NCBI GenBank assembly: GCA_042217545.1
Contig: JBDGSM010000073.1
Coordinates: 1 to 11,525 of the forward strand
DNA length: 11,525 bases
Reading direction: 5' to 3'
Source: Candidatus Nanohalobium sp.
GTDB lineage: Archaea > Nanohalarchaeota > Nanosalinia > Nanosalinales > Nanosalinaceae
Positions 1 through 11,525 of this stretch are shown piece by piece. Both the position numbers and the translations under genes were made by a program. The notes under the pieces were generated by a model. It was not told the origin of the DNA, searched no databases, and saw only the letters and a program-made list of their open reading frames with translations. The first letter of the stretch is position 1. The number at the start of each line of letters is the position of its first letter.

Positions 1-340
1 GCTCCTCGACATCCTCTACTTCGACGTAGGCCTCCACATGACCCTGGACCACGTGTCCTCCCATGCGATCCTCCGCTCTGAGAGCCTTCTCAAGGTTGAC
101 TTTCTGCCCCTGAGAGAGTTTTGAGAACCATGTCTTGTTCAGTGTTTCCTCCGCCAGGAAAAATTCTGCTCCGGACTCCGAGAGGCTTTCGATGGTGAGA
201 CAGGTGCCCGAAACGCTGATCGAGTCGCCTACCTGGTCGTCTTCAAAGAAGCTTCCGGCCTCTATCACTGCTCTGAGGCCTTCCCCTGCCTCGCTGAGTT
301 CTTTGATTTTCCCTGTCTTCTGTACAAGGCCTGTGAACAT
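1..340 (-). CDS. ribE: Riboflavin synthase, bacterial-type alpha chain (runs off the left edge of the window)
   Basis: Not in the ORF track. Manual minus-strand translation from ATG at 340: MFTGLVQKTGKIKELSEAGEGLRAVIEAGSFFEDDQVGDSISVSGTCLTIE...VNLEKALRAEDRMGGHVVQGHVE. The MFTG(L/I)V, GDSI.V.G.CLT, VNLE.AL and GGH.VQGH motifs are diagnostic. Symbol is ribE or ribC depending on nomenclature. Confidence 0.95.
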   Translation of the reverse strand, partial: MFTGLVQKTGKIKELSEAGEGLRAVIEAGSFFEDDQVGDSISVSGTCLTIESLSESGAEFFLAEETLNKTWFSKLSQGQKVNLEKALRAEDRMGGHVVQGHVEAYVEVEDVEE

Positions 341-423
341 ACTGGAATTTTTTCTTCTGAAATCTTTTATCTCTCTATCAGGGGGGTGTCGTTTTTTCAA
401 TACCGGAGTAGAAATAATTTGCC

Positions 424-1281
424 ATGGCAGATGATTTTGCGGGCAAGGCCTCGGATTTCTACATGGATCTGTTCACTCTGGAGTGGAAGAAACTTGTTTT
501 ACCAGTTCTCATGGTTTTACTGCTTTCAGCCAGTGCTTTCTCTACTCTGAGCCTGAGGAAGAATCCCGATATGAACAGGAGGCTGGATGCAAGCGTCCAG
601 ACAATGACAAATGTCTCCGTGGCGTTCCTGGAAACAGAATACTTCAATGACTCCATTAATTTGTCGCGCAGGGAGCTTACAAGACAGATAACCAGTAAAG
701 GGGACAGGATGGCAAAGGAAGCAACGCCGAGCCACTTCAGCCAGTTGGCTGCTGCAGGAAAGATTCAGAAGATAGGTATCTTCCCGTATGCTCCGGAGCT
801 GGACACTCCTGTCCCCGCCCCGAGGAAGAAGTTCTTTGCCTCGATCGCTGTGGTCGGCTACAGGCAGGAAAGCTTTTCCCGGCTCGGGAAACAGCTGAAC
901 TCATCAAGTAACATTTCTCTGAAGGAGTTCAACTCACGGGTCAGGGATATCATATCGGTCTCGTGGAAGGACAGCGAGGTAAAGGCCTATCTCAGGAACT
1001 ACAGCTCAAATACTTCGCCAGGCCGTGCCGGAGGCATAGACCTTCCGGAGAAGACGAGGCAGCAGATTATCGATGAGGATATTCCGGAGCTTGGCTTTTC
1101 CAGTTACATCCCTGCCCTTGTAGCAACATTCCTGCTGTACTACGTTGTGAACGCCGTTCTGGTTGAATCAGGTCGGAAAGCGATGGGAGGTATCAGAGAG
1201 ACCTCCGAACCTGGTTCAGGCGAGAGCGAAGACTCCGGAACTGGAGAGGAGGAATCCTCCGATGAACAGGAGAAGGCCTGA
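424..1281 (+). CDS. Hypothetical membrane protein, 285 aa (N-terminal TM, probable extracellular loop, C-terminal TM, acidic tail)
   Basis: Long ORF with hydrophobic segments LVLPVLMVLLLSASAF and YIPALVATFLLYYVVNAVLV. N-x-S/T sequons (NVS, NDS, NLS, NSS, NIS, NYS, NTS) lie between them, followed by an E/D/S-rich tail. No family recognised. Confidence 0.8.
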   Translation: MADDFAGKASDFYMDLFTLEWKKLVLPVLMVLLLSASAFSTLSLRKNPDMNRRLDASVQTMTNVSVAFLETEYFNDSINLSRRELTRQITSKGDRMAKEATPSHFSQLAAAGKIQKIGIFPYAPELDTPVPAPRKKFFASIAVVGYRQESFSRLGKQLNSSSNISLKEFNSRVRDIISVSWKDSEVKAYLRNYSSNTSPGRAGGIDLPEKTRQQIIDEDIPELGFSSYIPALVATFLLYYVVNAVLVESGRKAMGGIRETSEPGSGESEDSGTGEEESSDEQEKA

Positions 1282-1420
1282 TAGATAGGATGTCTCTGCG
1301 TCCTGTTGCCTCCAAATTTGATTATTGAGAGGTTTAAGCGGAGGGATAGAGTTCTGGCGTAGTTAAAGGGAGGCAAATCCCAGAAAACGGGATTTGCTGG
1401 AGGGAGAGTGTGGATGGAAT

Positions 1421-1429
1421 ATAAAAACA
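1421..1429 (-). terminator. T-rich terminator after the 5S rRNA
   Basis: TGTTTTTAT immediately 3' of the 5S on the minus strand. Confidence 0.45.
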
Positions 1430-1545
1430 GTCCGGCAACGTCCTGTGCATCCCGCCGTCAGGCAGTACGACACAGATCGATGGAGGACTTAACTTCCGTG
1501 TTCGGGATGGGTACGGGTGTTTCCCCTCCTCTTTGGTCGCCGGTA
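1430..1545 (-). rRNA. rrf: 5S rRNA, stand-alone
   Basis: Reverse complement of 1543-1432: CCGGCGACCAAAGAGGAGGGGAAACACCCGTACCCATCCCGAACACGGAAGTTAAGTCCTCCATCGATCTGTGTCGTACTGCCTGACGGCGGGATGCACAGGACGTTGCCGG. It contains the conserved CCCATCCCGAACACGGAAGTTAAG, helix I CCGGCGAC/GTTGCCGG and helix II GGAGG/CCTCC. Ends approximate. Confidence 0.95.
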
Positions 1546-1566
1546 ACCAGTAAACAATGTGTAACC

Positions 1567-1572
1567 TTTAAA
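1567..1572 (-). promoter_or_regulatory. TATA box of the 5S rRNA gene
   Basis: TTTAAA about 22-27 nt upstream of the 5S 5' end, which is archaeal spacing. Confidence 0.6.
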
Positions 1573-1640
1573 TACCTAAACCAGGTGCGGATTTGAGGCC
1601 TTTCGCAGGATATAAAATAAATCCTGTGGAAAAAGTATCT

Positions 1641-1892
1641 ATGGCAAACTTTGGAAGCAGTGGAGGTTTACGGGAGAAGATAGAGGGTTCGACTGTCGTC
1701 GACCTGATGACTGTTTTCGTGCTTGTATATGATTTCTTCCTTCTGAGGCAGGCAGGCCTTACAGCCTCTTTCAACAGTCCTTCTTCGCTGCTGACGATTT
1801 CAGGGGATGCTAATGTTATCGCTGCGCAGGCGACAGGCCTTTTGCTTGCGATCTACGTGGTAGAGGCTGTAATCGACAAGTCCTCTCACTGA
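1641..1892 (+). CDS. Small hypothetical membrane protein (83 aa, 2 TM)
   Basis: ATG at 1641 preferred over the TTG at 1593 because TATAAAAT at 1611-1618 sits at leaderless-promoter distance. Hydrophobic segments VVDLMTVFVLVYDFFLL and VIAAQATGLLLAIYVVEAVI. Confidence 0.65.
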   Translation: MANFGSSGGLREKIEGSTVVDLMTVFVLVYDFFLLRQAGLTASFNSPSSLLTISGDANVIAAQATGLLLAIYVVEAVIDKSSH

Positions 1893-2015
1893 TCAATAAC
1901 GGGAAATTCTTTGCTTGCAGTGGGTTGTATCCGTCTTCATGCAATAATGGGTGTTTATCTTCTCTTATCTTTTTTGAAAAATCTTCATGCTCCTTATTCA
2001 GGACAAAAAACAGTT

Positions 2016-2498
2016 CTAAAGAGTGCCAAGAAGCTCTTTAGCCCTTCCCTCCGGTATCCGAGAGGAAACAAGCTCATCCATATAGAATCCGCATCCGTAG
2101 ACCTTGCCCTCAAACTTCACAGCGACGTAGCCCTTACCGGAAGCGTTCCACGAGTTCTCATCACTTACTGAGGCCTCCGGGTCTTTTACTCCTTTTCTCT
2201 CGATCATTTCTCCGCTCAGAAGTGCTTTAAAATCCTTCCTGTCCACTTCAACAACGTTCCCGGAGATTCTATCCCCCATCAGCTGCAGGAAGTATGTGGT
2301 TGGCTTGAGCCCTATATCCATGAATCTTACTGCCCTGATTCCACAGGTCTCTGGTTCAAGACCGGTTTCCTGCGCTGATGATAGCCATACATCTCCAGAT
2401 ACTTCCCTGAACCCGAGGCCCGATATATTATCTATTTCGACCCCGAACCTTTGTCTAACGTACTTCCGGGCTTTCTCAGGTTTTCCTGAACTTTGCAA
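2016..2498 (-). CDS. RsmF C-terminal-like / NIP7-PUA-like RNA-binding partner of the adjacent methyltransferase
   Basis: GIR...LKPTTYFLQLMG...NVVEVD...LLSGE...GYVAVKFEG..YGCGFY pattern resembles the RsmF/YebU C-terminal PUA-like region and the small protein that follows RsmB/NOP genes in haloarchaea. The TTG start overlaps the methyltransferase 3' end, so the start is uncertain. Confidence 0.7.
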   Translation of the reverse strand: MQSSGKPEKARKYVRQRFGVEIDNISGLGFREVSGDVWLSSAQETGLEPETCGIRAVRFMDIGLKPTTYFLQLMGDRISGNVVEVDRKDFKALLSGEMIERKGVKDPEASVSDENSWNASGKGYVAVKFEGKVYGCGFYMDELVSSRIPEGRAKELLGTL

Positions 2499-3351
2499 CG
2501 AAGATCACCCCCGAGTTAAGATGATGAGGATATATGCGAACCGTTTTCCGCATCTCCTCACCGTAGATTTCTCCTTCAAACTTTTCCACACCTTCTGAAT
2601 GTGGAAATTCCGTGTCGATTTTCTCAAGTTCCAGGCCCTGTTCCAGCAGATGTCTCACTACGCCTTCATTTTCCTGCGGGTTAATCGTACATGTCGAGTA
2701 GACGAGAACGCCGTCCGGTTTCAGAAGATTCTTCGCCTTGTCAACCAGTTGTTTCTGGAGCTCTGAAAGGCCTTCTACCTCTTCTTCGCTAGCCGGCTCG
2801 AAATTACGATAGAATCGGTCTCCTTCACCGCTGCACGGCGCGTCCACAAGTACTCTATCATATTTCTCATCTTCAGGTATGGCTCTGCCATCATAGTTCG
2901 TCGCTGTTATGCATGCAGATCCTGTACGGTAGACGTTCGCATGCAGGCTTTTCATCCTCTGCGCTGAGTCATCGTTAGCGACCACAAGGCCTTTATTATT
3001 CATTTTTTCCGCGATCTGCGTGGCTTTTCCTCCAGGTGCTGCGCACATATCCAGGATTTTCTCTCCTGGCTGCGGATCAAGGATATGTGCCGGGAGGGAA
3101 GCAGATTCTTCCTGTACGTAGTACTCTCCTCTCCAGTGCATCGACGTTTTACCTGGCGTCTCAGTGCTTTTCAGCCTGTAGATCTTCCTGTTCCATGAGG
3201 CCTGTTCTACGTCTTCGAACCTCTCCTTTATCTGCTGGTCGAAGTTCTCTGAGGCCTTCAGGTCGTTTCTGCGTGCGGTATTGGTGGGATGGCTTTCTCT
3301 TTCCTTTTTGAAGGCCTGCCAGTCGTCTATTATCTCCCGGTATTTCTGCAT
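2476..3351 (-). CDS. RsmB/NOP2/NSUN-family RNA m5C methyltransferase
   Basis: Motifs YYVQEESAS, LDMCAAPGGK, VLVDAPCSGEG (motif IV Cys) and VYSTCTINPQENE (motif VI catalytic Cys). Confidence 0.95.
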   Translation of the reverse strand: MQKYREIIDDWQAFKKERESHPTNTARRNDLKASENFDQQIKERFEDVEQASWNRKIYRLKSTETPGKTSMHWRGEYYVQEESASLPAHILDPQPGEKILDMCAAPGGKATQIAEKMNNKGLVVANDDSAQRMKSLHANVYRTGSACITATNYDGRAIPEDEKYDRVLVDAPCSGEGDRFYRNFEPASEEEVEGLSELQKQLVDKAKNLLKPDGVLVYSTCTINPQENEGVVRHLLEQGLELEKIDTEFPHSEGVEKFEGEIYGEEMRKTVRIYPHHLNSGVIFVAKFRKT

Positions 3352-3464
3352 CGTCTATCTTTGTTTCTGGTTTAGTTACTGTTAAGACCCCTTTTCTTCC
3401 GTGGAATTTTAGCGTTTTTTCCTTAGATGGGTTTTTGAGTTTTGAAGTTTATCCTGTACTGTAT

Positions 3465-4193
3465 ATGGCCAGTGAGCTGCTTGAACGGGATGAGGAGGGA
3501 AACTACGTGAAGACCTACGGAGATACCTTGAACCCTCTGAGACAGCAGTACCGGCATCTGAGCTTTTCCGATCCTCTGCCTCCAGGTAAGGCGGAGAGAG
3601 TGATGAACGAGGTCAGGGCCGCGGATAATTTTACGGAGAAGTATATTCCTCACCCTGAAGTCCTTGATTACTCGATAGAGGACGGATCGGTCAAGCTGGA
3701 GAACGTCGGAGGCGCTGAGACGGTGAAGGAGTACCTTGAGTCAGCAGAGGAAGATGCCTCAGAGCTGGGCGAGATGATGGGGCGGCTTATAGCGGATATA
3801 CACGGCTTCGGATCCCACGGCGACCCAGAGTTGGATAACTTCCTTTACTGCCATGGAGACATACTATCCCTGGACCACGAGTTCTACAGCGAAGAAAAAA
3901 ATATTGAAGACATCAGAGGAGACCTGAGACTGATCGAATCCGACGCAAGAACCCTGAAAAAGGAGACCTATATCGAATTCATGAAGGCCTTTGAAGAAGC
4001 CTACAGGGAGGAAACGGAGTCAAGAGGCGATTTCCCTGTTGAAACCGATTTCACAACCGGGGAAAAGACTTTCCAGTTCATTGAAGGCCTGGCTCTTACG
4101 AAGAAACGCCAGGAAGATGTAGATATAGAAAATGTGCTTCAGAGATCCTACAATCTTTTCAGGAACACTGTGGACGACTCTAGAAATCCGTAA
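3465..4193 (+). CDS. Atypical protein-kinase-fold protein, Bud32/RIO/Kdo-like
   Basis: VKTY Lys, alphaC-like RVMNEVR, PHPEVLDY, IADIHGFGSHGDPELDNF catalytic loop, LSLDHE metal-binding Asp, and DLRLIE matching Bud32 DL.VL. ATG 3465 preferred over TTG 3435. Confidence 0.75.
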   Translation: MASELLERDEEGNYVKTYGDTLNPLRQQYRHLSFSDPLPPGKAERVMNEVRAADNFTEKYIPHPEVLDYSIEDGSVKLENVGGAETVKEYLESAEEDASELGEMMGRLIADIHGFGSHGDPELDNFLYCHGDILSLDHEFYSEEKNIEDIRGDLRLIESDARTLKKETYIEFMKAFEEAYREETESRGDFPVETDFTTGEKTFQFIEGLALTKKRQEDVDIENVLQRSYNLFRNTVDDSRNP

Positions 4194-4746
4194 ACTTTCT
4201 CTGACCAGACTCTTCTTTGCCAAAGGCCTTTCTGAGATCTTCTTCCAGTTCAGGGCCTTTACTGCGGTCGTAAAGCGTGGCCGCGGGATGGTAGACCGGC
4301 ATAATTTTCTGGCCTTCACGGGTGAATACCCGTCCGTGAATCTTCGAGATGCCCTGGCTTGTGTCGAGAACATGTTTCGAGGCGAAGTTGCCCAGCGTCA
4401 CGATCATATCCGGGTTAACCTCTTCCAGTTCTCTTTCAAGAAGTGGCGCCCAGGCCTCGATCTCTTCGCTTTTCGGATCCCGGTTGTCTGGGGGCCTTAC
4501 CTTCACAAGGTTGGTTATGTATATCTCGCTTCGGTCCACACCGATCTTGGATAGTATTTCGTTCATCCGTTCTCCTGCACGGCCTACAAACGGCTCCCCC
4601 TCTTCCACTTCGTTTGCTCCTGGCGCTTCACCTATGAAGACTACTTGAGCATCTTCAGGCCCTGTCGCTGGAACGAACCGTTCATCATTCATGTAGTTCG
4701 GATGTATGGTTTCGAAGAAATCCGAGTATTTCTCCCTGAAATCCAT
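4180..4746 (-). CDS. udg: Uracil-DNA glycosylase, family 4-like, lacking the Fe-S cysteines, with a C-terminal PIP-like motif
   Basis: GEAPG, GEPFVGRAG, ITNLVK.RPP.NRDP and YHPAA motifs. Ends in QRKFTDF, resembling an archaeal PCNA-interacting box. Overlaps the convergent kinase gene by 14 bp. Confidence 0.92.
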   Translation of the reverse strand: MDFREKYSDFFETIHPNYMNDERFVPATGPEDAQVVFIGEAPGANEVEEGEPFVGRAGERMNEILSKIGVDRSEIYITNLVKVRPPDNRDPKSEEIEAWAPLLERELEEVNPDMIVTLGNFASKHVLDTSQGISKIHGRVFTREGQKIMPVYHPAATLYDRSKGPELEEDLRKAFGKEESGQRKFTDF

Positions 4747-4782
4747 ACAGTTTTAACGGCGGCAAAGACTTTTTACAGTTTC

Positions 4783-5139
4783 TCAGAACAGATCCTCAAG
4801 CTCTTCTACGGCATCGTAGACAACATCTTCATCGACATCTTTGACTTCCCTGGATCCTTCACCGTAAACCTCGACCCTGAAATCCCTGTCGCTATTCCTG
4901 TGAACGTGGAAATCGCCTGGTTCCAAACCTGAGCCAGTTATCTGGTCGTAGGCTTCTTCAGCGGCATCCAAGTCAATCACTGTGTTCGGTTCCCCTGGGT
5001 ACTGGTTGCCAGAGTTAGCTATAGGGCCTTCGCCGTGCATAAATACGTCATCTCTCAGTACTTCGCCGGTCGCTACATCTACAGTATATCTTGGACCTGT
5101 GCTAAAATCCGTGAAGTACTCAACCTCAAAACCCTTCAT
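4783..5139 (-). CDS. Hypothetical acidic protein (118 aa)
   Basis: Strongly D/E-rich halophile-type composition. TTTATA box on the minus strand at about 5167-5172. No family recognised. Confidence 0.75.
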   Translation of the reverse strand: MKGFEVEYFTDFSTGPRYTVDVATGEVLRDDVFMHGEGPIANSGNQYPGEPNTVIDLDAAEEAYDQITGSGLEPGDFHVHRNSDRDFRVEVYGEGSREVKDVDEDVVYDAVEELEDLF

Positions 5140-5231
5140 CGTAACATATTTTTTTTACCAAAGAATTATAAAAACATTCTCGTATGTGTTTCTCCACTGT
5201 TTTTCCCCACCTGCAGAGGCCTATGAACCAT

Positions 5232-5480
5232 TCAGGAATAGATGCCTTCAGGTCGTATAATCGCTGCAAGAAGAGATAGAAGAAAGTTTACCGTCCGGAA
5301 GACCAACGCCAGGACCAGAAGGAAAAGAGTTATCAGCCGGGCCTGGAACCAGGCAAGCACTTTTTTGTCCGTGGAAGGCCTTCCAACCGAGGACCTCTCC
5401 CTCTTCTTTCCGCCGGATACCGTGTCTTCGTAAAGTATGAACCCTTTCTCCGTGTACCTGACCTCGGCCTTTCCAGACAT
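5232..5480 (-). CDS. Small hypothetical membrane protein (82 aa)
   Basis: Basic N-terminus followed by a long hydrophobic C-terminal stretch (LITLFLLVLALVFRTVNFLLSLLAAII). Co-oriented with its neighbours. Confidence 0.55.
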   Translation of the reverse strand: MSGKAEVRYTEKGFILYEDTVSGGKKRERSSVGRPSTDKKVLAWFQARLITLFLLVLALVFRTVNFLLSLLAAIIRPEGIYS

Positions 5481-5581
5481 ACAGGAAGATTACTTCCGAG
5501 ACCTACTTGAGCACTTTTACACAGCGAAAATCACTTGACAGGACAACAATACCTCTGAAGCAGATCGACAGTTCTAAAACC

Positions 5582-5600
5582 AAAAAAACACAGGAAAAAA
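5582..5600 (-). terminator. Oligo-T terminator of the tRNA-Tyr transcription unit
   Basis: TTTTTTCCTGTGTTTTTTT on the minus strand directly after the duplicated tRNA 3' end. No T-run follows the tRNA proper. Confidence 0.55.
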
Positions 5601-5622
5601 TCCCGACTCCAGGATTTGAACC
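5601..5622 (-). repeat. Exact 22-bp direct repeat of the tRNA-Tyr 3' end
   Basis: TCCCGACTCCAGGATTTGAACC at 5601-5622 is identical to 5677-5698. It is adjacent to the hairpin GAAGCTC-GCCTCCGG-GAGCTTC (5624-5645). Confidence 0.95.
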
Positions 5623-5676
5623 CGAAGCTCGCCTCCGGGAGCTTCTTACATCAAATGCTGGCGAGGGAACGAAGTT

Positions 5677-5750
5677 TCCCGACTCCAGGATTTGAACCTG
5701 GGACAAGCCGCTCTACAGGCGGCCGCTCTGCCAGCCTGAGCTAAGTCGGG
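5677..5750 (-). tRNA. tRNA-Tyr (GTA), intronless, CCA not encoded
   Basis: CCCGACTTAGCTCAGGCTGGCAGAGCGGCCGCCTGTAGAGCGGCTTGTCCCAGGTTCAAATCCTGGAGTCGGGA. Acceptor CCCGACT/AGTCGGG, D stem GCTC/GAGC, anticodon stem GCCGC/GCGGC with loop CTGTAGA, T arm CCAGG-TTCAAAT-CCTGG. C1:G72, A73 and a short variable loop are archaeal/eukaryal Tyr identity elements. Confidence 0.97.
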
Positions 5751-5797
5751 GTTGGTGATACGGGTTCTTAGCTCTTTGAGAAGCCTTCTGGCTTCGA

Positions 5798-5822
5798 CCT
5801 GAGCTAAGTTGGGGAGTGATAT
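5798..5822 (-). repeat. Imperfect direct repeat of the tRNA-Tyr 5' end plus leader
   Basis: CCTGAGCTAAGTTGGGG (5798-5814) matches CCTGAGCTAAGTCGGGG (5735-5751) at 16/17 positions, and both are followed within a few nt by GTGATA. Part of the nested hairpin CTTAGCTC-N5-GAAGCC-TTCT-GGCTTC-N5-GAGCTAAG (5767-5808). Confidence 0.85.
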
Positions 5823-5946
5823 GTAGTTGATCTGTCCGGGTTTTGAGGCCTTGAAGCAGGCCTTGTAACCGATATCCGTGGATGGGGTACGAAGATTTAA
5901 GAGGGTTACCGGAAGCTTGTGGAAGGTTTCTCCGGGGGAAAGAATG

Positions 5947-7302
5947 TTATGGGCGGAAGTTTGTCTCTACTTTGTCTGATTTCTTGATGACTTCGTCTTT
6001 TTCCTTCAGTACTGCCTCCTGGAGTTCTGCTCCGCCTTCTACTTCGACTTTAGGCCTTATTACGTACTGGAGGATTCTCTGGTCGCCCGGTTCAAGGTCT
6101 TCAAGGCCCCAGACCAGTTTTGTACCGTCATTTGTTCTTCTGACTGTTGGTGCGCCCATTTCAAAGTCTTTGTCTACTTCTGCTATGTCCGGTATGAAGT
6201 CTTCTACCGTGGCATGTGTGAGTGTTCTGTCGGAGATATTTTCAATTTCTATGGATACTTTGAGACCTTCTGGATCGTCTTCTACTGTTTTCCTTATTTC
6301 TACCGTGTTGCTGAGTTTTTTGAGGGCTGCGAGCGCCACTATTATTCCTATGAGTGCTATTCCTGGCATCCAGTAGTTTGTGGTCCTGGTTAGGGTAAAT
6401 TCTTCTCCAGGTTCCAGGCTTGTCTTCCAGTAGTATACCTGCTGCGGCCCGTTCTTGTCTGCTGAGTCCGGTGACTTGCTGAATCCTGTTATCGGCGCCA
6501 GGTAGCTGGCAACCGTCCTGTTGACAGTGTAGTTTTCCTTGGCGTTTCCCTCGTTCCGGACGCTGATGGAGCCTCTGTACGTTAGAATGTTGTCTTGAGT
6601 ATTTTCCTTTACGTTGATGTCGGTTACCTTGCCCACTGAGAAGTTCCTTGTTTCTCTGCGGACTTCACTTCCTCCAAGCTGGAGAGAGGCATTCAGACCG
6701 TATATTCCCGGCTTCTCCCCCTTCTTGACAGGCAGTGTGAACTCCAGTTCTCTTGTTCCTCCCGGAAGGATGGGAGAACTCTTCTCCGTGGTGCTGAAGT
6801 TCTTGTAGCTGAAAACTGCCCTGTAGTTCTTCAGTACGTTAGATGATATGCTTCTGATCTTCATAGATCCTTTCAAACTGTCGCCGGGCATGTAGCTGGT
6901 GTTCTCCAGTGAGAAGTCTTCAAGTATGAGTTTTCTTGACCTTTTCACGTGGAACGAACTTTTTAATTTCTTCGATTCGTTTATTCCGGAGGCCTTGACA
7001 TATATACTGAATGAGTACGTGTTATCTACAGCGTATTTTCCTGGAGTAACTGTTATATCGAAGTTGTGGACTTCTCCCGGTTTCAGCGTCTTTGATTCTT
7101 CAGTGTAGATCCAGGAAGGCTTTGGGGAGAAAACTCCTATGCTGTATCCGACTTCCTGGTTGTAGGTATTGTTTACCTTTACCTGTATCAGTGCAGGACT
7201 GTCCGGAGAGGCTGTGGGATCAGGTCTGTGAACGGTGGCCTGGAATGCGGAGACCGAACCGATCAGGAGAAGAAATACTATCAGGCCTGAAAGCTTCTTC
7301 AT
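5947..7302 (-). CDS. Membrane-anchored surface protein with Ig-like beta domains (CARDB/COG1361/DUF11-like), 451 aa
   Basis: Signal peptide MKKLSGLIVFLLLIGSVSA, repeated L.PGE / V.V.N Ig-fold signatures, about 8 N-glycosylation sequons, TM WMPGIALIGIIVALAAL, and a C-terminal DUF11-like domain (V.D.IP...LVWGLEDLEPGDQRILQY). TTAAATA box at 7326-7332. Confidence 0.8.
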   Translation of the reverse strand: MKKLSGLIVFLLLIGSVSAFQATVHRPDPTASPDSPALIQVKVNNTYNQEVGYSIGVFSPKPSWIYTEESKTLKPGEVHNFDITVTPGKYAVDNTYSFSIYVKASGINESKKLKSSFHVKRSRKLILEDFSLENTSYMPGDSLKGSMKIRSISSNVLKNYRAVFSYKNFSTTEKSSPILPGGTRELEFTLPVKKGEKPGIYGLNASLQLGGSEVRRETRNFSVGKVTDINVKENTQDNILTYRGSISVRNEGNAKENYTVNRTVASYLAPITGFSKSPDSADKNGPQQVYYWKTSLEPGEEFTLTRTTNYWMPGIALIGIIVALAALKKLSNTVEIRKTVEDDPEGLKVSIEIENISDRTLTHATVEDFIPDIAEVDKDFEMGAPTVRRTNDGTKLVWGLEDLEPGDQRILQYVIRPKVEVEGGAELQEAVLKEKDEVIKKSDKVETNFRP

Positions 7303-7354
7303 ATAGTAGTTTTAGGCCTCAAGATTATTTAAGATTGGAGTTCAGCTGGAGCGG

Positions 7355-8218
7355 CTAGATTCCGGCGGCCAGTCTGAGCAGGACCCTGAGGCCTGTTGCT
7401 ATGCCGATTGAATATAGTACGATGAGTGCTATGGCCTTGAATGTTTCTTCTTCCAGGTCTTCTTCGATTATGTAGATTGCGAGGCCCGCTATACCTGCTT
7501 TCAGGACCAATATACCTGGCTGTCCGAAGATTGATGTGAAGGCCTGTGTTAGTAGTTGTTTCTGATGGTAGCCGTATGATAGGCTGACCATGCTTGCTGC
7601 TGCTCCGAAGAACTGGCTGAATGCGACGAGAACGTATTCTTTGCTGCCGTATCCTGTTTTCCGGGTTGCTGAGTAGTAGATTACTGTGAGGACTGTGCTG
7701 ATCGCGATCGGAGGGATCAATGCGTAAGGCCTTTTTCCAGTTAGAACGAGGTAGAGGGAGAAGACGAGGAAAGGTGTTAGGGCGGCGTATCCTATGGCCT
7801 GGAGGATTTTATCCCTTGTGTATCCGTATCTGGGGGCGAGTCTGGAGGCTACTGCTAACGCCGTGAGGAATACTGCGGCGATGAGGAAGTAGATGAATGG
7901 TGTTATTATGAGAGGCCTTACAATGAAGGGTGCTACTGCTGCGTCCTCCAGGAATCTTAGAACTCCTCCGAGTGCTATGAAAGGTATTGCGCTGATAGCG
8001 GTAGTTGTTGTTATCTGTATATCTCTCTTTCCCAGTTCTCTGCGTACGATAAAGATCGCTGCCACCGCTATTATACCCCAGGTCGCCGTGTTGATTATGT
8101 TGTATCCTGTGTGGGCGGTTACTCCGTGCCATGCCGCTGTTTTTGCGTTCCTGGCGTCTGCTATCACAGGGCCTAGCAGGTATTTCCAGATGAACTCCAG
8201 CGGCGTCATTTCATTCAT
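7355..8218 (-). CDS. DUF63-family polytopic membrane protein
   Basis: GP.IADA...GYNIINTATWG and PF..LGG.LR.LEDA...ITPFIYF motifs typical of archaeal DUF63, with about 8 TM segments. AGGAGG upstream; the true start may be the in-frame ATG at 8209. Confidence 0.8.
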   Translation of the reverse strand: MNEMTPLEFIWKYLLGPVIADARNAKTAAWHGVTAHTGYNIINTATWGIIAVAAIFIVRRELGKRDIQITTTTAISAIPFIALGGVLRFLEDAAVAPFIVRPLIITPFIYFLIAAVFLTALAVASRLAPRYGYTRDKILQAIGYAALTPFLVFSLYLVLTGKRPYALIPPIAISTVLTVIYYSATRKTGYGSKEYVLVAFSQFFGAAASMVSLSYGYHQKQLLTQAFTSIFGQPGILVLKAGIAGLAIYIIEEDLEEETFKAIALIVLYSIGIATGLRVLLRLAAGI

Positions 8219-8326
8219 TCCTCCTGTCTTTGCTTTCAGTTTTCAGGACCTAATAACTTGGGGGGATCTGTCTGTTAGATGTTTCTATCAATTAAACTTT
8301 TCTAATATGTAGACGTTTGCTTCTGT

Positions 8327-8695
8327 ATGACTGATACCGCCGAGGTGGTTGAGGCAGCAGTTAGAGAAGAGAGAGGTCAGAGTTTCACAGATCTGAAGGA
8401 GAAGACAGGCCTCTGTAACGGCGTTCTCCAGTACCATATCAGGAAGAACGATGAGCTATTAAGCAGGAACGGGGCCATCCATTACAGGGGGTGCTGTGAG
8501 ACCTGTCCGTTCAGGGAGGACTGTGAGGACCGCTGTATCCAGAAGGAGCTGCGGAAGACAAGGACCCGGGAGATCCTGAAGATGATGAGGGATGGAATGA
8601 TTCAGGCCGATATTGCGCGTGAACTGGACCTGAGCCGGGCTACAGTCAACTATCATGTCGACAAGTTGAGGGAAATGAACTTGATCGAGAGTTAG
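8327..8695 (+). CDS. Double winged-HTH transcriptional regulator (ArsR-like/COG3398-like) with a central cysteine cluster
   Basis: HTH1 SFTDLKEKTGLCNGVLQYHIRK, linker CCETCPFREDCEDRC, HTH2 IQADIARELDLSRATVNYHVDKLREMNLI. Confidence 0.8.
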   Translation: MTDTAEVVEAAVREERGQSFTDLKEKTGLCNGVLQYHIRKNDELLSRNGAIHYRGCCETCPFREDCEDRCIQKELRKTRTREILKMMRDGMIQADIARELDLSRATVNYHVDKLREMNLIES

Positions 8696-8717
8696 AGAGT
8701 TCTACGGGGAAACAGTT

Positions 8718-8724
8718 TTTATTA
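8718..8724 (+). promoter_or_regulatory. TATA box of the dehydrogenase gene (leaderless)
   Basis: TTTATTA preceded by purine-rich GGGGAAAC (BRE-like), 22-28 nt before ATG 8746. Confidence 0.55.
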
Positions 8725-8745
8725 GAGAGTGCGCCATAACGTTTT

Positions 8746-9732
8746 ATGGACGTTGCTTGGTTCGATGCTGAGGAATGGGAGAGGAAGTACCTTGCAGAGG
8801 TAGAGCCGGGCTTTGAAATAGATTTCTATGAGGAACCGCTGAACGAGGATAACATGGATAAGGCCTCGGACTATGATGTCGTAACGGTCTTCGTCGACTC
8901 GGATATTTCCGAGAAAGTTATAGACTGCTTTGATGGACGGATGATCGCCTGTAGGTCTACAGGATACGATCACGTTGCTACAGAGTATGCATCAAGTCAG
9001 GGAATCGCTGTCTGCAACGTCCCTGAGTACGGAGACAGTACTGTTGCGGAGCACACGTTCGGCTTGATCCTTGCGTTGAACAGAAAGATCTTCTCCGCGA
9101 TCAAGAAAGTGCAAGAAGGAAATTTCAATCATGAAGGCCTTAGAGGCCATGATCTGAAGGGAAAGAAGCTTGGAGTTATCGGGACCGGTTCTATCGGTAA
9201 GAGAGTGATCGATATTGCGAACAGTTTTGACATGGATGTTATCGCCTCTGATCCCTACCCGGATATGGAGGCCGCAAACAGCAAGGGCTTCATGTATGTC
9301 TCACGCAAGGATCTTCTCAGACAGGCGGATATAGTCACACTTCACTGCCCTCTAACTGATGAGACCGATCACCTGCTTTCAGAGGAAGAATTCGAACTTA
9401 TGGACAGTACTGTATTGATCAATACTGCCAGAGGGAAGCTTATCGATACAGATGCTCTGATAGAAGGCCTTGAAAACGGGAGCGTGCGGCATGCAGGCCT
9501 TGACGTTCTCGAGGAGGAGGCCTATATCGAGGATGATATTGAACAGCTTTCAAAACTTGAGGACAGGAGAGATATAGAGACGGTCCTGGAGGATCACGTC
9601 CTTATGGATCGGGATGACGTGCTGATCACGCCGCACAACGGTTTTAACAGCGTGGAGGCGATGCAGAGGATCGAGGATATGACTGTTGAGAACATTGAGA
9701 AGGGAAGAAATATTGTGAACAGGCCTGGTTAG
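8746..9732 (+). CDS. ldhA: D-isomer 2-hydroxyacid dehydrogenase, D-lactate dehydrogenase-like
   Basis: RSTGYDHV, NVPEYG..TVAEH, Rossmann GTGSIG, LHCPL, INTARG (Arg), LDVLEEE (Glu), TPHNGF (His). The family is secure; lactate as substrate is inferred. Confidence 0.85.
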   Translation: MDVAWFDAEEWERKYLAEVEPGFEIDFYEEPLNEDNMDKASDYDVVTVFVDSDISEKVIDCFDGRMIACRSTGYDHVATEYASSQGIAVCNVPEYGDSTVAEHTFGLILALNRKIFSAIKKVQEGNFNHEGLRGHDLKGKKLGVIGTGSIGKRVIDIANSFDMDVIASDPYPDMEAANSKGFMYVSRKDLLRQADIVTLHCPLTDETDHLLSEEEFELMDSTVLINTARGKLIDTDALIEGLENGSVRHAGLDVLEEEAYIEDDIEQLSKLEDRRDIETVLEDHVLMDRDDVLITPHNGFNSVEAMQRIEDMTVENIEKGRNIVNRPG

Positions 9733-9780
9733 AGGCCTGGAAGGATAGAAAAATTATGTTTTGAAGGCTTTGAAGGGCCT

Positions 9781-10770
9781 TTATTTCATGTCGATGTCGA
9801 GTTTGTCGGCGATGTCGCTGTAGTTCTTTCTGACCGTGACTTCTGTGACTCCGACTTTTTCCGCGATCTCTTTCTGCGTCAGCTCCTTGTTTTCCACGCT
9901 GGATACGATGTAGAAAACTCCTGCGACTACGGATTTCGGACTTTTTCCTGCGAGCAGGCCTTCTCCTCTTGCTTCATCGATGATTCTTTTGGCGTGGGCC
10001 TGTTCTTCACCTGTGAAGCCGAGCTGTTCTCCGAATCTTGGTACGAAGTCTTCAGGCTTTGCTGGCTGGATTGGAATGTCCAGTTCTCTGGCCGCGTACC
10101 TGTAAGTTTTTCCAAGTTTTCTTTTCTTGGTGGAGATTGCTTCTGCGAACTCGTCGAGAGTTCTCGGTGTTCCCTGGTTTCTTGCTACAAGGAATGTCAG
10201 TGCTGCTACAAGTACTTCGAGGTTTCTGCCTTTTACGATGCCTTCTTCTCTTGATTTTTCCAGTAGTCTTGCTGCTTCTTCGCTTACGCTGTCAGGCAGG
10301 TCGAGCTGTGAGACCAGTTTCTTCATCTCCGATAGACCTCTCTGCAGAAGTCTTTCCTTTGAGTTGCTGGTCCTGTTGTCCCATTTCTTCATCCTGTAGT
10401 ACTGCTGTCTCTTGTGTCCTTTGACGTTGTTGAGTTCTCCACTGCTTCCGATCTTGGTCTTCATTCCCTTGTCCGACTTTGTGAACGTTATGCTGCTTCC
10501 GGACCTGGACTTCTTGTCCTTCTCCGCTGCGTCGAAAGCTCTCCATTCCTCGGAGAAGTCGATCCTGTCCTCATCGATGATGGACCCACAGTCAGAGCAG
10601 TAAAGCTCTCCTTTTGCTGAGTCCTCGGAGAATCCTTCGCTCCCACAGTTAGGACAGCGCGGCTCGTCGGACTGCGCCTGCTTCTGTTCTCTTTTCACTG
10701 GAATAGTTTCTTCGCTGGAGTTTGAAATATCTACTTCGGAGTTCGAAGAATCCTCTTTTACGTTGGGCAT
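9781..10770 (-). CDS. tfb: Transcription initiation factor IIB (TFB)
   Basis: Zn ribbon CPNC...CSDCG, B-reader EWRAF, two cyclin repeats (PRTLDE; TQKEIAEKVGVTEVTVR). Start set at ATG 10770 because the annotated 10821 extension contains the TATA box. Confidence 0.95.
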   Translation of the reverse strand: MPNVKEDSSNSEVDISNSSEETIPVKREQKQAQSDEPRCPNCGSEGFSEDSAKGELYCSDCGSIIDEDRIDFSEEWRAFDAAEKDKKSRSGSSITFTKSDKGMKTKIGSSGELNNVKGHKRQQYYRMKKWDNRTSNSKERLLQRGLSEMKKLVSQLDLPDSVSEEAARLLEKSREEGIVKGRNLEVLVAALTFLVARNQGTPRTLDEFAEAISTKKRKLGKTYRYAARELDIPIQPAKPEDFVPRFGEQLGFTGEEQAHAKRIIDEARGEGLLAGKSPKSVVAGVFYIVSSVENKELTQKEIAEKVGVTEVTVRKNYSDIADKLDIDMK

Positions 10771-10794
10771 AAATACCACAAAAGACCAAAAATC

Positions 10795-10807
10795 TTTAAA
10801 TAATTTT
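10795..10807 (-). promoter_or_regulatory. BRE/TATA promoter of tfb
   Basis: AAAATTATTTAAA on the minus strand, with TTTAAA about 25-30 nt upstream of ATG 10770. Confidence 0.6.
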
Positions 10808-10883
10808 TGTATACACGTCAATAAAATTCCTGGAGTTCCTGATAGAAGAAATTAAACAGGTACTTCTTCTATATACCTTTCTC

Positions 10884-11030
10884 TTACTCCTCTTCCTTCA
10901 GCTCAAGCTTGTAACCAAAGGGATCTTCTACATAGATCGCTGGTGCCCTGCCCTGGCTTCCCAGTGGCTCACCAGTCCTAAGGACATTGAAACCTTTCTC
11001 CTCCGCCTCCTGCTTCAACGCGTCTACATC
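10884..11030 (-). pseudogene. C-terminal fragment of a VOC/glyoxalase-family gene
   Basis: DVDALKQEAEEKGF...GSQGRAPAIYVEDPFGYKLELK is the second beta-alpha-beta-beta-beta VOC module. The upstream in-frame sequence (TTG start, MWRAFSELL...) lacks the N-terminal H....V.D...S..FY module. Confidence 0.7.
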
Positions 11031-11146
11031 GAAGAAGTCAGAGAAAACCTGGAATAGAGAGTCGAGAACCGGATTAACGAACCAACCGTCAGAAGAAGCA
11101 GTTAACAATTCTGAAAAGGCCCTCCACAAAATGCCTCCTGATGTTA

Positions 11147-11270
11147 AAAACTTTCAGAAGTTTTGGCAGGTCGCGGATTCGAAACTCGGTAGAGTTTCTG
11201 CATCTCGCAGATTTTTCTAAAAAATCTGCTTCAAACAGCTTTTCAGCTGTGTCCAGAAAATCCTACGGAT
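11147..11270. repeat. Cluster of short inverted repeats
   Basis: AAAACTT-TCAG-AAGTTTT (11147-11164), GAAACTC-GGTA-GAGTTTC (11181-11198), GCAGATTTTT-CTA-AAAAATCTGC (11207-11229), ACAGCT-TTTC-AGCTGT (11235-11250), ATCC-TAC-GGAT (11260-11270). Confidence 0.75.
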
Positions 11271-11398
11271 CTTCGATGGATTTGAACCGGAATCAAGGCA
11301 AATGCAATTGGAAGTTTCCGGAATTGATTTAGAATAGTTTCATCAACCGTTAGATTTATTACTTTAGTGCTACTATAGAATTCATAGGTGAAACAATT

Positions 11399-11525
11399 AT
11401 GGCTTCGGTTTCAGTTAAACTACCTGACTCTCTAAAAAAGCAGATAGAGGAAAGAACGGAGGAGGAAGGTTACATGAACACTTCCGAGTATATCCGACAG
11501 GCTGTAAGAGAAAAGGTCAAGGAAG
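11399..11525 (+). CDS. Ribbon-helix-helix (CopG/ParD-like) protein, possible antitoxin (runs off the right edge)
   Basis: Not in the ORF track. MASVSVKLPDSLKKQIEERTEEEGYMNTSEYIRQAVREKVKE has the RHH pattern (V.V.LP...GY.N.SEYIR.AVR). SD AGGTGA at 11386-11391 and TTTATTA at about 11355-11361. Confidence 0.85.
   Translation, partial: MASVSVKLPDSLKKQIEERTEEEGYMNTSEYIRQAVREKVKE

Follow-up and report, generated by a model that had tools for sequence, protein, structure and literature searches.

The hexamer AGGCCT, a perfect palindrome, is upheld by an active force at the DNA level, independent of codon usage, in the genome of Candidatus Nanohalobium sp. (GenBank assembly GCA_042217545.1), to which the stretch analyzed here belongs (contig JBDGSM010000073.1, positions 1 to 11,525 of the forward strand; hereafter the window). 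An earlier note, made from the window alone, had proposed that the word behaves as a highly iterated palindrome (HIP) in an archaeon of the DPANN type and that an active process creates or retains it, and this proposal is supported by the shuffles, the codon phases and the occupancy of permissive positions described below. The genome (G000; 1,032,751 bases in 82 contigs, of which the window is contig 71, 92% complete) carries 3,699 copies, one per 279 bp, which makes AGGCCT its commonest hexamer. The ratio of observed to expected counts (O/E) on base composition is 15.1, the next palindromic hexamer reaching only 2.33, and in the related genome G003 the ratio is 19.6. Every contig of G000 is dense in the word (1.3-5.9 per kb), and over 5-kb segments the mean and the variance are both 17.75, with a minimum of 7.

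Neither codon usage nor amino-acid order can account for this excess. Using open reading frames (ORFs) delimited by our own crude caller (1,035 in G000, 86% of the genome), we count 3.46 copies per kb within genes and 4.01 per kb in the rest of the genome, non-coding DNA having an O/E of 19.75, and coding copies occupy all three codon phases (548, 1,054 and 1,484 in phases 0, 1 and 2). Permutation of synonymous codons within genes left 586.1 ± 20.3 sites (maximum 623 in 30 runs) and permutation of codon order 294.3 ± 15.2, against 3,089 observed, in accordance with the earlier view that codon usage alone would be insufficient. Under Markov models of orders 1 to 4 the O/E declines from 13.0 through 5.1 and 2.4 (2.41) to 1.11. 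The last two values are nevertheless circular, because most AGGCC and GGCC words sit inside AGGCCT: 7,398 of 9,205 AGGCC pentamers (two-strand counts) and 58% of 6,377 GGCC tetramers do so, other NGGCCN palindromes are depleted (GGGCCC O/E 0.17, CGGCCG 0.31, TGGCCA 0.43), and G043, a complete genome of a non-enriched relative, has no comparable excess of AGGCC. The enrichment is thus not confined to the window, does not vanish on codon-preserving shuffling and is not explained by tetramer or pentamer composition. A longer dispersed repeat was likewise rejected, since 8-mers are explained by the hexamer alone and no more than 0.16 bit lies in the flanks, for the most part an avoidance of T before the site; the hexamer is therefore the unit and not the core of something longer. 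That composition, the usage of codons or some dispersed repeat merely simulates the signal deserves next to no credence: the pentamer-based ratio of 1.11 would favor it were it not circular, and both shuffles, the non-coding excess, the uninformative flanks and the recurrence of the enrichment in independent assemblies, four single-contig genomes among them, all oppose it.

The same force extends to the encoded proteins. Where the residues are compatible with the word, AGGCCT fills 70, 61 and 69% of the positions in phases 0, 1 and 2 in G000, 83, 72 and 71% in G003, and 55, 54 and 64% in the likewise enriched G048 (comparisons with this genome cover its first 360 kb of 1,047 kb), against 5, 4 and 3% in G043. 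Compatible peptide contexts per 1,000 codons are themselves more frequent in G000 than in G043 (2.66 vs 1.17, 5.73 vs 2.97 and 7.19 vs 4.60), and the R-P dipeptide has an O/E of 1.41-1.54 in enriched genomes (1.41 in G000) vs 0.80 in G043. With permissive contexts about twice as common as in G043, protein sequences have therefore been bent toward AGGCCT.

In the window, a direct count gave 40 copies at exactly the 40 starts listed in the earlier note, whose examples of the three codon phases (9135, 983 and 9721) are also correct, and the strong excess that it had claimed over chance is evident: 3.38 copies are expected (standard deviation 1.98, largest 11), and none of 200 dinucleotide-preserving shuffles reached 40. 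These copies make up 40 of the 72 GGCC tetramers of the window; 31 are genic (4, 15 and 12 in phases 0, 1 and 2) and nine intergenic according to the crude caller, the latter being the six previously taken as intergenic plus 1754, 1835 and 5376, which lie in short uncalled ORFs. The placement in a DPANN-type archaeon also agrees with the named relatives of a window gene, which are labeled Candidatus Nanohaloarchaea archaeon. The sites are as follows, with no strand assigned to any of them.

28..33, site in ORF 2-340(-), codon phase 1
276..281, site in ORF 2-340(-), phase 2
327..332, site in ORF 2-340(-), phase 2
446..451, site in ORF 424-1281(+), phase 1
983..988, site in ORF 424-1281(+), phase 1
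1274..1279, site in ORF 424-1281(+), phase 1
1596..1601, intergenic site
1754..1759, site intergenic by the caller, within the uncalled 99-aa ORF 1593-1892
1835..1840, site intergenic by the caller, within the uncalled 99-aa ORF 1593-1892
2171..2176, site in ORF 2016-2321(-), phase 1
2768..2773, site in ORF 2476-3351(-), phase 2
2987..2992, site in ORF 2476-3351(-), phase 2
3198..3203, site in ORF 2476-3351(-), phase 1
3252..3257, site in ORF 2476-3351(-), phase 1
3312..3317, site in ORF 2476-3351(-), phase 1
3985..3990, site in ORF 3465-4193(+), phase 1
4085..4090, site in ORF 3465-4193(+), phase 2
4224..4229, site in ORF 4180-4746(-), phase 1
4452..4457, site in ORF 4180-4746(-), phase 1
5217..5222, intergenic site
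5376..5381, site intergenic by the caller, within the uncalled 82-aa ORF 5232-5480
5846..5863, pair of sites (5846 and 5858, 12 bp apart), intergenic, about 100 bp upstream of tRNA-Tyr 5677-5750(-), a 6-bp stem being possible
6052..6057, site in ORF 5947-7302(-), phase 0
6990..6995, site in ORF 5947-7302(-), phase 1
7283..7288, site in ORF 5947-7302(-), phase 2
7314..7319, intergenic site
7389..7394, site in ORF 7355-8218(-), phase 2
7540..7545, site in ORF 7355-8218(-), phase 1
7727..7732, site in ORF 7355-8218(-), phase 0
7913..7918, site in ORF 7355-8218(-), phase 0
8407..8412, site in ORF 8327-8695(+), phase 2
8861..8866, site in ORF 8746-9732(+), phase 1
9135..9140, site in ORF 8746-9732(+), phase 2
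9465..9470, site in ORF 8746-9732(+), phase 2
9495..9500, site in ORF 8746-9732(+), phase 2
9518..9523, site in ORF 8746-9732(+), phase 1
9721..9738, pair of sites with a spacing of 12 bp, the one at 9721 in phase 0 and the one at 9733 intergenic, spanning the stop codon of ORF 8746-9732, with a possible 7-bp stem and a T-rich stretch downstream, terminator-like
9956..9961, site in ORF 9781-10770(-), phase 2

The GGCC core of the word is indispensable and the outer A and T are graded, so that the whole hexamer is read with a stringency like that of a restriction enzyme. The nine pairs of one-mismatch words have O/E values of 0.76-1.87 in G000, none being depleted or strongly enriched. Variants at inner positions stand at the G043 baseline (AGGACT/AGTCCT 759 vs 743 per Mb, AAGCCT/AGGCTT 686 vs 717), whereas those at the outer positions (BGGCCT/AGGCCV), at 50-162 per Mb in G043, climb to 436-1,272 per Mb where the word is enriched, a 4-20-fold rise; the earlier remark that one-mismatch variants are common accordingly holds for the outer positions and fails for the inner ones. 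From arithmetic on the NGGCCN tables, each outer A or T multiplies abundance about 3-5-fold; G048 fits a purely multiplicative model, which G000 and G003 surpass by a factor of 2-4. By our own arithmetic, all GGCC taken together stand at about one third of expectation in G043.

The neighbors from which sites might be drawn were also compared. The deamination neighbors are not depleted in G000 (O/E 1.87 for AGGTCT/AGACCT and 1.41 for AGGCTT/AAGCCT), and their densities come close to those of G043, the exception being AGACCT in G003, which is 2.4-fold lower (AGACCT/AGGTCT at 914, 337 and 722 per Mb in enriched genomes vs 800 in G043). When 1,441 sites of G000 were aligned to ortholog columns of G043, only 17 were AGGCCT there, and the one-off variants found included AGGACT (82), AGGTCT (42), AAGCCT (31) and AGACCT (30); in 435 of the 1,441 all encoded residues are the same in both genomes, a share inside the 25-39% to which the background identity of 62.7% would lead. 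A process limited to T:G mismatches is insufficient, because non-enriched relatives carry the transversion variant AGGACT at orthologous columns as well. Likewise, as these relatives carry every kind of one-off variant and no neighbor pool has been drained, the action would be at the level of alleles. The data demand a force that reads the whole word as stringently as a type II enzyme does, acts on alleles of every mutational origin, is strong enough to fix amino-acid changes and can be turned on and off between sister species.

In Escherichia coli, very-short-patch repair by Dcm and Vsr raises CCWGG and lowers words containing CTAG, and AGGCCT could be likened to it as a repair-type process that shifts oligonucleotide abundances genome-wide. 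The present effect is, however, one order of magnitude larger, and comes with no Vsr, no C5 methyltransferase and no depleted T-containing neighbor. The earlier note had suggested methylation-directed repair around a GGCC or AGGCCT methylase site, with a Vsr-like gene in the vicinity, and our searches do not support this suggestion. No C5 methyltransferase (PF00145) was found by profile search in G000-G003, G048, G049, G036 or G052, and such enzymes are present in G035 and six non-enriched members of the family. Genuine N4/N6 enzymes of PF01555 occur in G048 and eight non-enriched genomes, the other enriched genomes having only a weak match that recurs in most relatives, and PF02384 gave strong matches only in G003 and G048. 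Elhai's survey (PMC4390886) places a cyanobacterial enzyme specific for GGCC in PF02086, and this family is absent from six enriched genomes. Hence in these four families no enzyme is common to the enriched genomes, and the single-contig genomes G001 (98% complete) and G049 (96%) contain nothing convincing in any of them. The only strong methyltransferase match of G003, an HsdM-like N6 enzyme (349 bits, 683,444-684,397), lies inside an island of low GC and low AGGCCT density. One weak PF01555/PF02384 match (C19) was rejected as the cognate enzyme, a match to the same stretch of the profile recurring in most relatives regardless of the trait; by its DLPYG-containing sequence it may be a tRNA methyltransferase. 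The search for Vsr returned a single match of 16.1 bits, below the cut-off of 27, and MutS was absent from all five genomes searched.

The association with a methylase is in fact the reverse of the one proposed, since an M.HaeIII-like enzyme is found in G017, a relative that avoids AGGCCT, and the enriched genomes have no common enzyme. This C5 enzyme (L017:1456-2469(-)) matches M.HaeIII over its full length, with 326 bits to 1dct vs 115 for M.HhaI. An unannotated ORF of 293 aa adjoins it (L017:2474-3355(-)) and is a candidate GGCC restriction enzyme. AGGCCT is the word of StuI, GGCC that of HaeIII, and the all-or-none stringency is the same; restriction sites are, however, normally avoided, as they are in G017, G018 and G043, and AGGCCT is hyper-abundant in genomes without such enzymes. 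A GGCC or AGGCCT methyltransferase that biases repair toward the word as in Elhai's model for HIPs, whether it belongs to a class that escaped detection or comes from the host cell, is quite unlikely as the cause. In its favor, enzymes of the GGCC type are in circulation within the family, a nanohaloarchaeon and its host have been suggested to be linked by trans-cellular methylation (PMC11001535), the methylated motif of that other consortium being GDGCHC (PMC10266531), and, in the 2015 survey, every cyanobacterial HIP, the alternate ones included, has a cognate methyltransferase and one-nucleotide deviants fall at the first or last base, as here (PMC4390886). Against it stand the four families without a common enzyme, the empty single-contig genomes, the foreign-looking surroundings of the G003 enzyme, two small S-adenosylmethionine (SAM) methyltransferases that do not track the trait, the missing Vsr and MutS, the undepleted deamination neighbors, the conversion of transversion neighbors too, and the HaeIII-like enzyme in a genome that avoids the word.

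A biased repair or gene conversion independent of methylation, for example recombination triggered by NucS/EndoMS that resolves heteroduplexes toward AGGCCT, could be considered instead and is also unlikely. NucS is present, so that mismatch-triggered breaks and recombination are available, and the force acts in all classes of DNA and yields to constraint, both of which fit. NucS was found, however, in four of the five genomes searched irrespective of the trait (G001, G003, G049 and the non-enriched G043), no neighbor is drained consistently, as the AGACCT/AGGTCT densities given above illustrate, and no enzyme with 6-bp specificity was identified. In all four genomes that have it, the NucS gene lies within about 1 kb of the RNA-polymerase region, and it was not found in G000, possibly owing to a contig end.

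The AGGCCT trait is switch-like: within a single family, certain lineages have it and their sister lineages do not. A census of the word and of its reversed control word in 70 genomes of the phylum (50 in the family of the window and 20 in four other families) was bimodal, with 13 genomes at an AGGCCT/control ratio of 4.3-17 and all others at or below 1.63. The enriched genomes make up 13 of the 50 in the family of the window and none of the 20 elsewhere; they comprise all three of genus g1, to which the genome of the window belongs, all five of g26, all three of g29 and two of six species in g2. Some relatives avoid the word, as seen from the counts of AGGCCT vs control in G017 (73 vs 491), G018 (55 vs 362) and G043 (97 vs 344). 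Among the named relatives, one complete genome has 31 sites in 21 kb and two metagenome-assembled genomes have 2 and 7 sites. On a FastTree phylogeny built from the concatenation of four RNA-polymerase subunits (38 of 41 genomes, the other three having been dropped for fewer than three genes; midpoint-rooted, support values not inspected), the enriched genomes fall into four groups, each with non-enriched sisters. In the codon alignment of these subunits (7,059 columns) there are 15-23 sites in strongly enriched genomes and 5-6 in those of g29, and 23 of the 38 columns with a site in any enriched genome are common to at least two groups, six of them to all four. Such sharing is expected when about two thirds of the few permissive positions are filled. 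Non-enriched genomes have 0-4 sites at the 23 shared columns, relic counts too few to tell four gains from one gain with many losses. G032, the sparsest enriched genome of g26 (about 950 AGGCCT per Mb), has synonymous one-off variants (AGGACT, AGACCT, AGGTCT) where three congeners share sites.

This polyphyletic distribution, for which no intrinsic determinant was found, might suggest an extrinsic pressure, a host or virus factor such as restriction or anti-restriction in a haloarchaeal host that favors word-rich symbiont genomes, and the word would indeed seem contested in the community, being avoided in G017, G018 and G043 and hyper-abundant in others. No restriction pressure is known to enrich a site, and we regard this explanation as very improbable. 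A scan of IMG/VR for clusters of the motif was uninformative on nanohaloarchaeal viruses: among at least 121 stretches, 80 loci were examined and none resembles proteins of G000. The densest of those examined were a contig rich in WGGCCW and tandem repeats. The former (L232, 10.1 kb, 55.6% GC) has 30 AGGCCT together with many AGGCCA, TGGCCT and TGGCCA and no similarity to G000 proteins, and L206:3921-5384 is a 63-bp tandem repeat with AGGCCT in each unit, 19 of the 24 GGCC of the locus being in AGGCCT.

The force gives way to strong constraint, namely in rRNA, in the most conserved proteins and where a second copy lies within about 20-50 bp. In G000 the density is 2.56 per kb in genes for proteins at least 75% identical to G043 and 3.6-3.8 per kb in the less conserved ones, and the rRNA operon of G003 has three copies in 4.4 kb, the same as that of G043. 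This operon is one of eight low-density stretches in G003; another, the 17-kb island at 669,001-686,000 that holds the HsdM-like gene (41.5% GC, 1.2 AGGCCT per kb), is probably recently acquired DNA, and for this reason motif density could serve as a clock of foreign DNA; the sparseness of such low-GC islands in G003 is taken as a sign that the force needs time to act. Along genes the profile is flat, with a dip right after start codons and a 2-fold peak over the first 25 bp beyond stop codons. Pairs in this peak that are spaced by 11-15 bp make extended stems with T-runs behind them; the pair at 9721 and 9733 of the window is one such terminator-like arrangement. Close sites interfere with each other. 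Spacings below 50 bp number 339 in G000 vs 606 under an exponential distribution, and when filled and unfilled labels were permuted among protein-permissive positions, filled-filled spacings below 50 bp numbered 245 vs 364.8 ± 12.7 in G000 and 376 vs 433.9 ± 12.3 in G003, with none of 1,000 permutations as low. Occupancy falls to 0.43-0.51 when another site is less than 20 bp away. The interference fits either diminishing returns or, because any two copies form an inverted repeat, hairpin avoidance equally well.

Taken as a whole, the statistics of AGGCCT resemble, in this comparison by analogy, DNA uptake signals as much as cyanobacterial HIP1. The explanation that we tentatively favor, with a rough probability of 0.3, is a transmission advantage dependent on recognition, a molecular drive like that of uptake or transfer signals. 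A DNA-handling protein, probably dimeric, would read the whole word; DNA bearing AGGCCT would be preferentially taken up, transferred, recombined or retained; and the word would then accumulate by molecular drive, as the uptake signal sequences (USS) of Pasteurellaceae and the DNA uptake sequences (DUS) of Neisseriaceae do in bacteria. The force would act on whole alleles and not on one kind of mismatch, gain or loss of the protein is proposed to underlie the patchy distribution, and some close pairs may have been co-opted as terminator-like hairpins. The likeness to USS and DUS (PMC2817400, PMC3458573) includes thousands of copies in genes and spacers, restriction to particular lineages, and an accumulation opposed by protein constraint. 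It further includes the doubling of peptides, USS having "approximately doubled" the encoded tripeptides (PMC2817400), a four-base critical core with weaker flanks, as in the Haemophilus influenzae motif with its four critical core bases, although here the profile comes from genome statistics only, and a use of pairs as terminators, USSs having termination functions too (PMC3458573 for both).

Several observations weigh against this explanation. Sequence-specific DNA uptake is not known from archaea, and no competence machinery was found here: ComEC (PF03772) was detected in none of the 50 family genomes, with controls responding only in bacteria. Nor is there an excess of preferential gene flow, as G000, about equally distant (median identity of about 61%) from G003, G043 and G048, shows 47 shared genes with G003 vs 43 with G043 and similarity tails of 28 vs 24. 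The short-range interference is equally explained by hairpin avoidance, as said above, and the phyletic and defence-gene searches described further on gave nothing. AGGCCT is also a 6-bp perfect palindrome and about four times denser than USS or DUS, and known uptake signals are 9-12 bp long and asymmetric (PMC3458573). It is hardly more frequent in spacers than within genes (4.0 vs 3.5 per kb), in contrast to USS/DUS, of which no more than 34.5-65% are located in ORFs. Saturation is as high in 302 lineage-specific ORFs of G000 as it is in core genes (3.64 vs 3.40 per kb), whereas USS are missing from genes that have no homologues (PMC2817400 for both statements on USS/DUS). The stronger proposition that AGGCCT is the first archaeal signal for sequence-specific DNA uptake, transfer or self-recognition, free of methylation, read by a restriction-enzyme-like dimer in these ectosymbionts, spread by molecular drive and repeatedly gained and lost in the family, is doubtful.

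Alternatively, AGGCCT may be the selected binding site of an abundant protein of chromosome architecture, segregation or replication, its copies being kept by weak selection, and this we consider possible though not probable. The all-or-none core with graded outer positions is what a dimeric binder would give, the even density over 5-kb segments and the near-equal density in genes and spacers suggest a demand for about 4 sites per kb and not an unlimited accumulation, and the interference between close sites fits a footprint or diminishing returns. The separate filling of the same permissive columns in different groups may point the same way, and HIP1 is reported to be conserved by selection, its sites more so between genomes than those of control palindromes (Xu et al. 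2018, PMC5861425). On the other side, sister species do without the enrichment, about 3,700 weakly selected sites with their amino-acid costs are demanding for a reduced symbiont, and no DNA-binding protein linked to the trait emerged among the candidates shared by G000 and G003 and absent from G043. Neither helical phasing nor a kilobase periodicity beyond the control was found: in a simple fast Fourier transform, unlike the damped-sine method of Xu et al. 2018, the best peak of G003 is at 52 kb, with a permutation p of 0.036 vs 0.054 for the control word, and is not motif-specific.

The resemblance to cyanobacterial HIP1 (GCGATCGC) and to the alternate HIPs, especially GGCGCC of Calothrix PCC 7103, is close. 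In both cases (PMC4390886, PMC5861425), a short GC-rich palindrome at least 15-fold over expectation is found in all frames and in spacers, whatever the codon usage, and one relative may have it where another has a replacement or none; the one-base deviants concentrate at the first and last positions, and the cause is unexplained. AGGCCT differs in being archaeal and denser (one per 250-280 bp, with about two thirds of the permissible positions saturated), in having no cognate methyltransferase that tracks it and no MutS in the five genomes searched, and in that no motif-specific kilobase periodicity, such as is reported for HIP1 (PMC5861425), was found.

A determinant gene was sought among the ORFs of G000 that have a match in G003 and none in G043 (59 of 1,035). 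The 51 distinct G003 orthologs scanned with Pfam (three references with stops were dropped and duplicates merged), to which 15 identity outliers were added, include a Rad50/Mre11-like pair, a Toprim protein, Ogt, an OB-fold protein, three small helix-turn-helix regulators, an HD-domain nucleotidase, two generic SAM methyltransferases, transporters and metabolic enzymes, about 14 being without a family. Searches of 21 candidates each against NCBIfam and PADLOC gave no match to a nuclease, methylase or defence system, the labels returned being only enolase-like, Bud32-like and coiled-coil. Five candidates common to G000 and G003 and absent from G043 were followed through all 50 genomes of the family, and in no case does their distribution match that of the trait: the Rad50-like protein occurs in six genomes including the non-enriched G040 and G014, the Toprim protein in 36, Ogt in 26, and the two small SAM methyltransferases are no better correlated. 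The determinant may instead be an allele of a universal protein, which would be invisible to presence or absence. The Chi sequence of recombination hotspots, which is asymmetric, strand-oriented, far less enriched and much sparser than AGGCCT, offers a further parallel as an over-represented short word marking self DNA for a repair machinery; AGGCCT differs in being palindromic, and the Rad50/Mre11-like operon does not track it. This operon, encoding a Rad50/SbcC-like ATPase and an Mre11/SbcD-like phosphoesterase, lies at 131-3,116 of contig 12 in G000 and at 703,727-706,718 in G003, and was found in G000, G001, G003, G052, G040 and weakly in G014; most of the family thus appears to be without this break-repair pair. 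The homologue of Ogt (O6-alkylguanine-DNA alkyltransferase) in G000 matches in two separate pieces (contig 26, 39,432-39,596 and 39,693-39,851), as if the gene were frameshifted or in decay; in several relatives the gene has in-frame stops. G000 (contig 17, 34,386-35,393) and G003 (506,677-507,660) also have in common an additional AAA+ paralogue of the Orc1/Cdc6 type, at 46% identity, with relatives of only about 25% in G043 and in the part of G048 that was covered.

In the full-text literature no paper was found that describes an abundance of AGGCCT in nanohaloarchaea or any other archaeon, most subscription journals being outside the coverage; the single joint match was an unrelated methylome paper on Alcanivorax. 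New here are the phylum-wide bimodal census with its four enriched groups, the exclusions of methyltransferase, Vsr, MutS and ComEC across these groups, the HaeIII-like enzyme in an avoiding relative, the profile of core and outer specificity relative to G043, a complete genome without the enrichment, the interference test that takes the encoded proteins into account, the parallels with uptake signals and the five negative phyletic tests. For some 30 years hyper-iterated palindromes have lacked an explanation, and the one concrete model links them with methyltransferases; AGGCCT adds an archaeal case with a stronger signal, in which protein sequences are bent and for which no matching methylase, Vsr or MutS was found. 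A drive free of methylation, if true, would show that such palindromes can arise with no methyltransferase involved, in conflict with the model that prevails for the HIPs of cyanobacteria. As sister species contrast in the trait (in four groups, and between species of g2), full phyletic profiling should be able to find the cause. In practice, AGGCCT distorts codon-usage, dipeptide and k-mer-based binning statistics of enriched genomes, in which islands of low density mark recently acquired DNA.

Some minor features of the window may be added. Its sequence is present in two salt-lake metagenome runs, as contigs only. ORF 3465-4193(+) encodes an acidic protein of 242 aa with an ortholog in G003 and none in G043, the G003 protein giving weak matches to Bud32/RIO-type kinases (52 bits, below the cut-off). 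A stretch at about 11,150-11,290, not called as a tRNA, matches other genomes at 92-95%. It is the second such stretch, the first being 5677-5750(-), which is tRNA-Tyr (GTA) and for that reason yields short DNA matches of high identity in other genomes.

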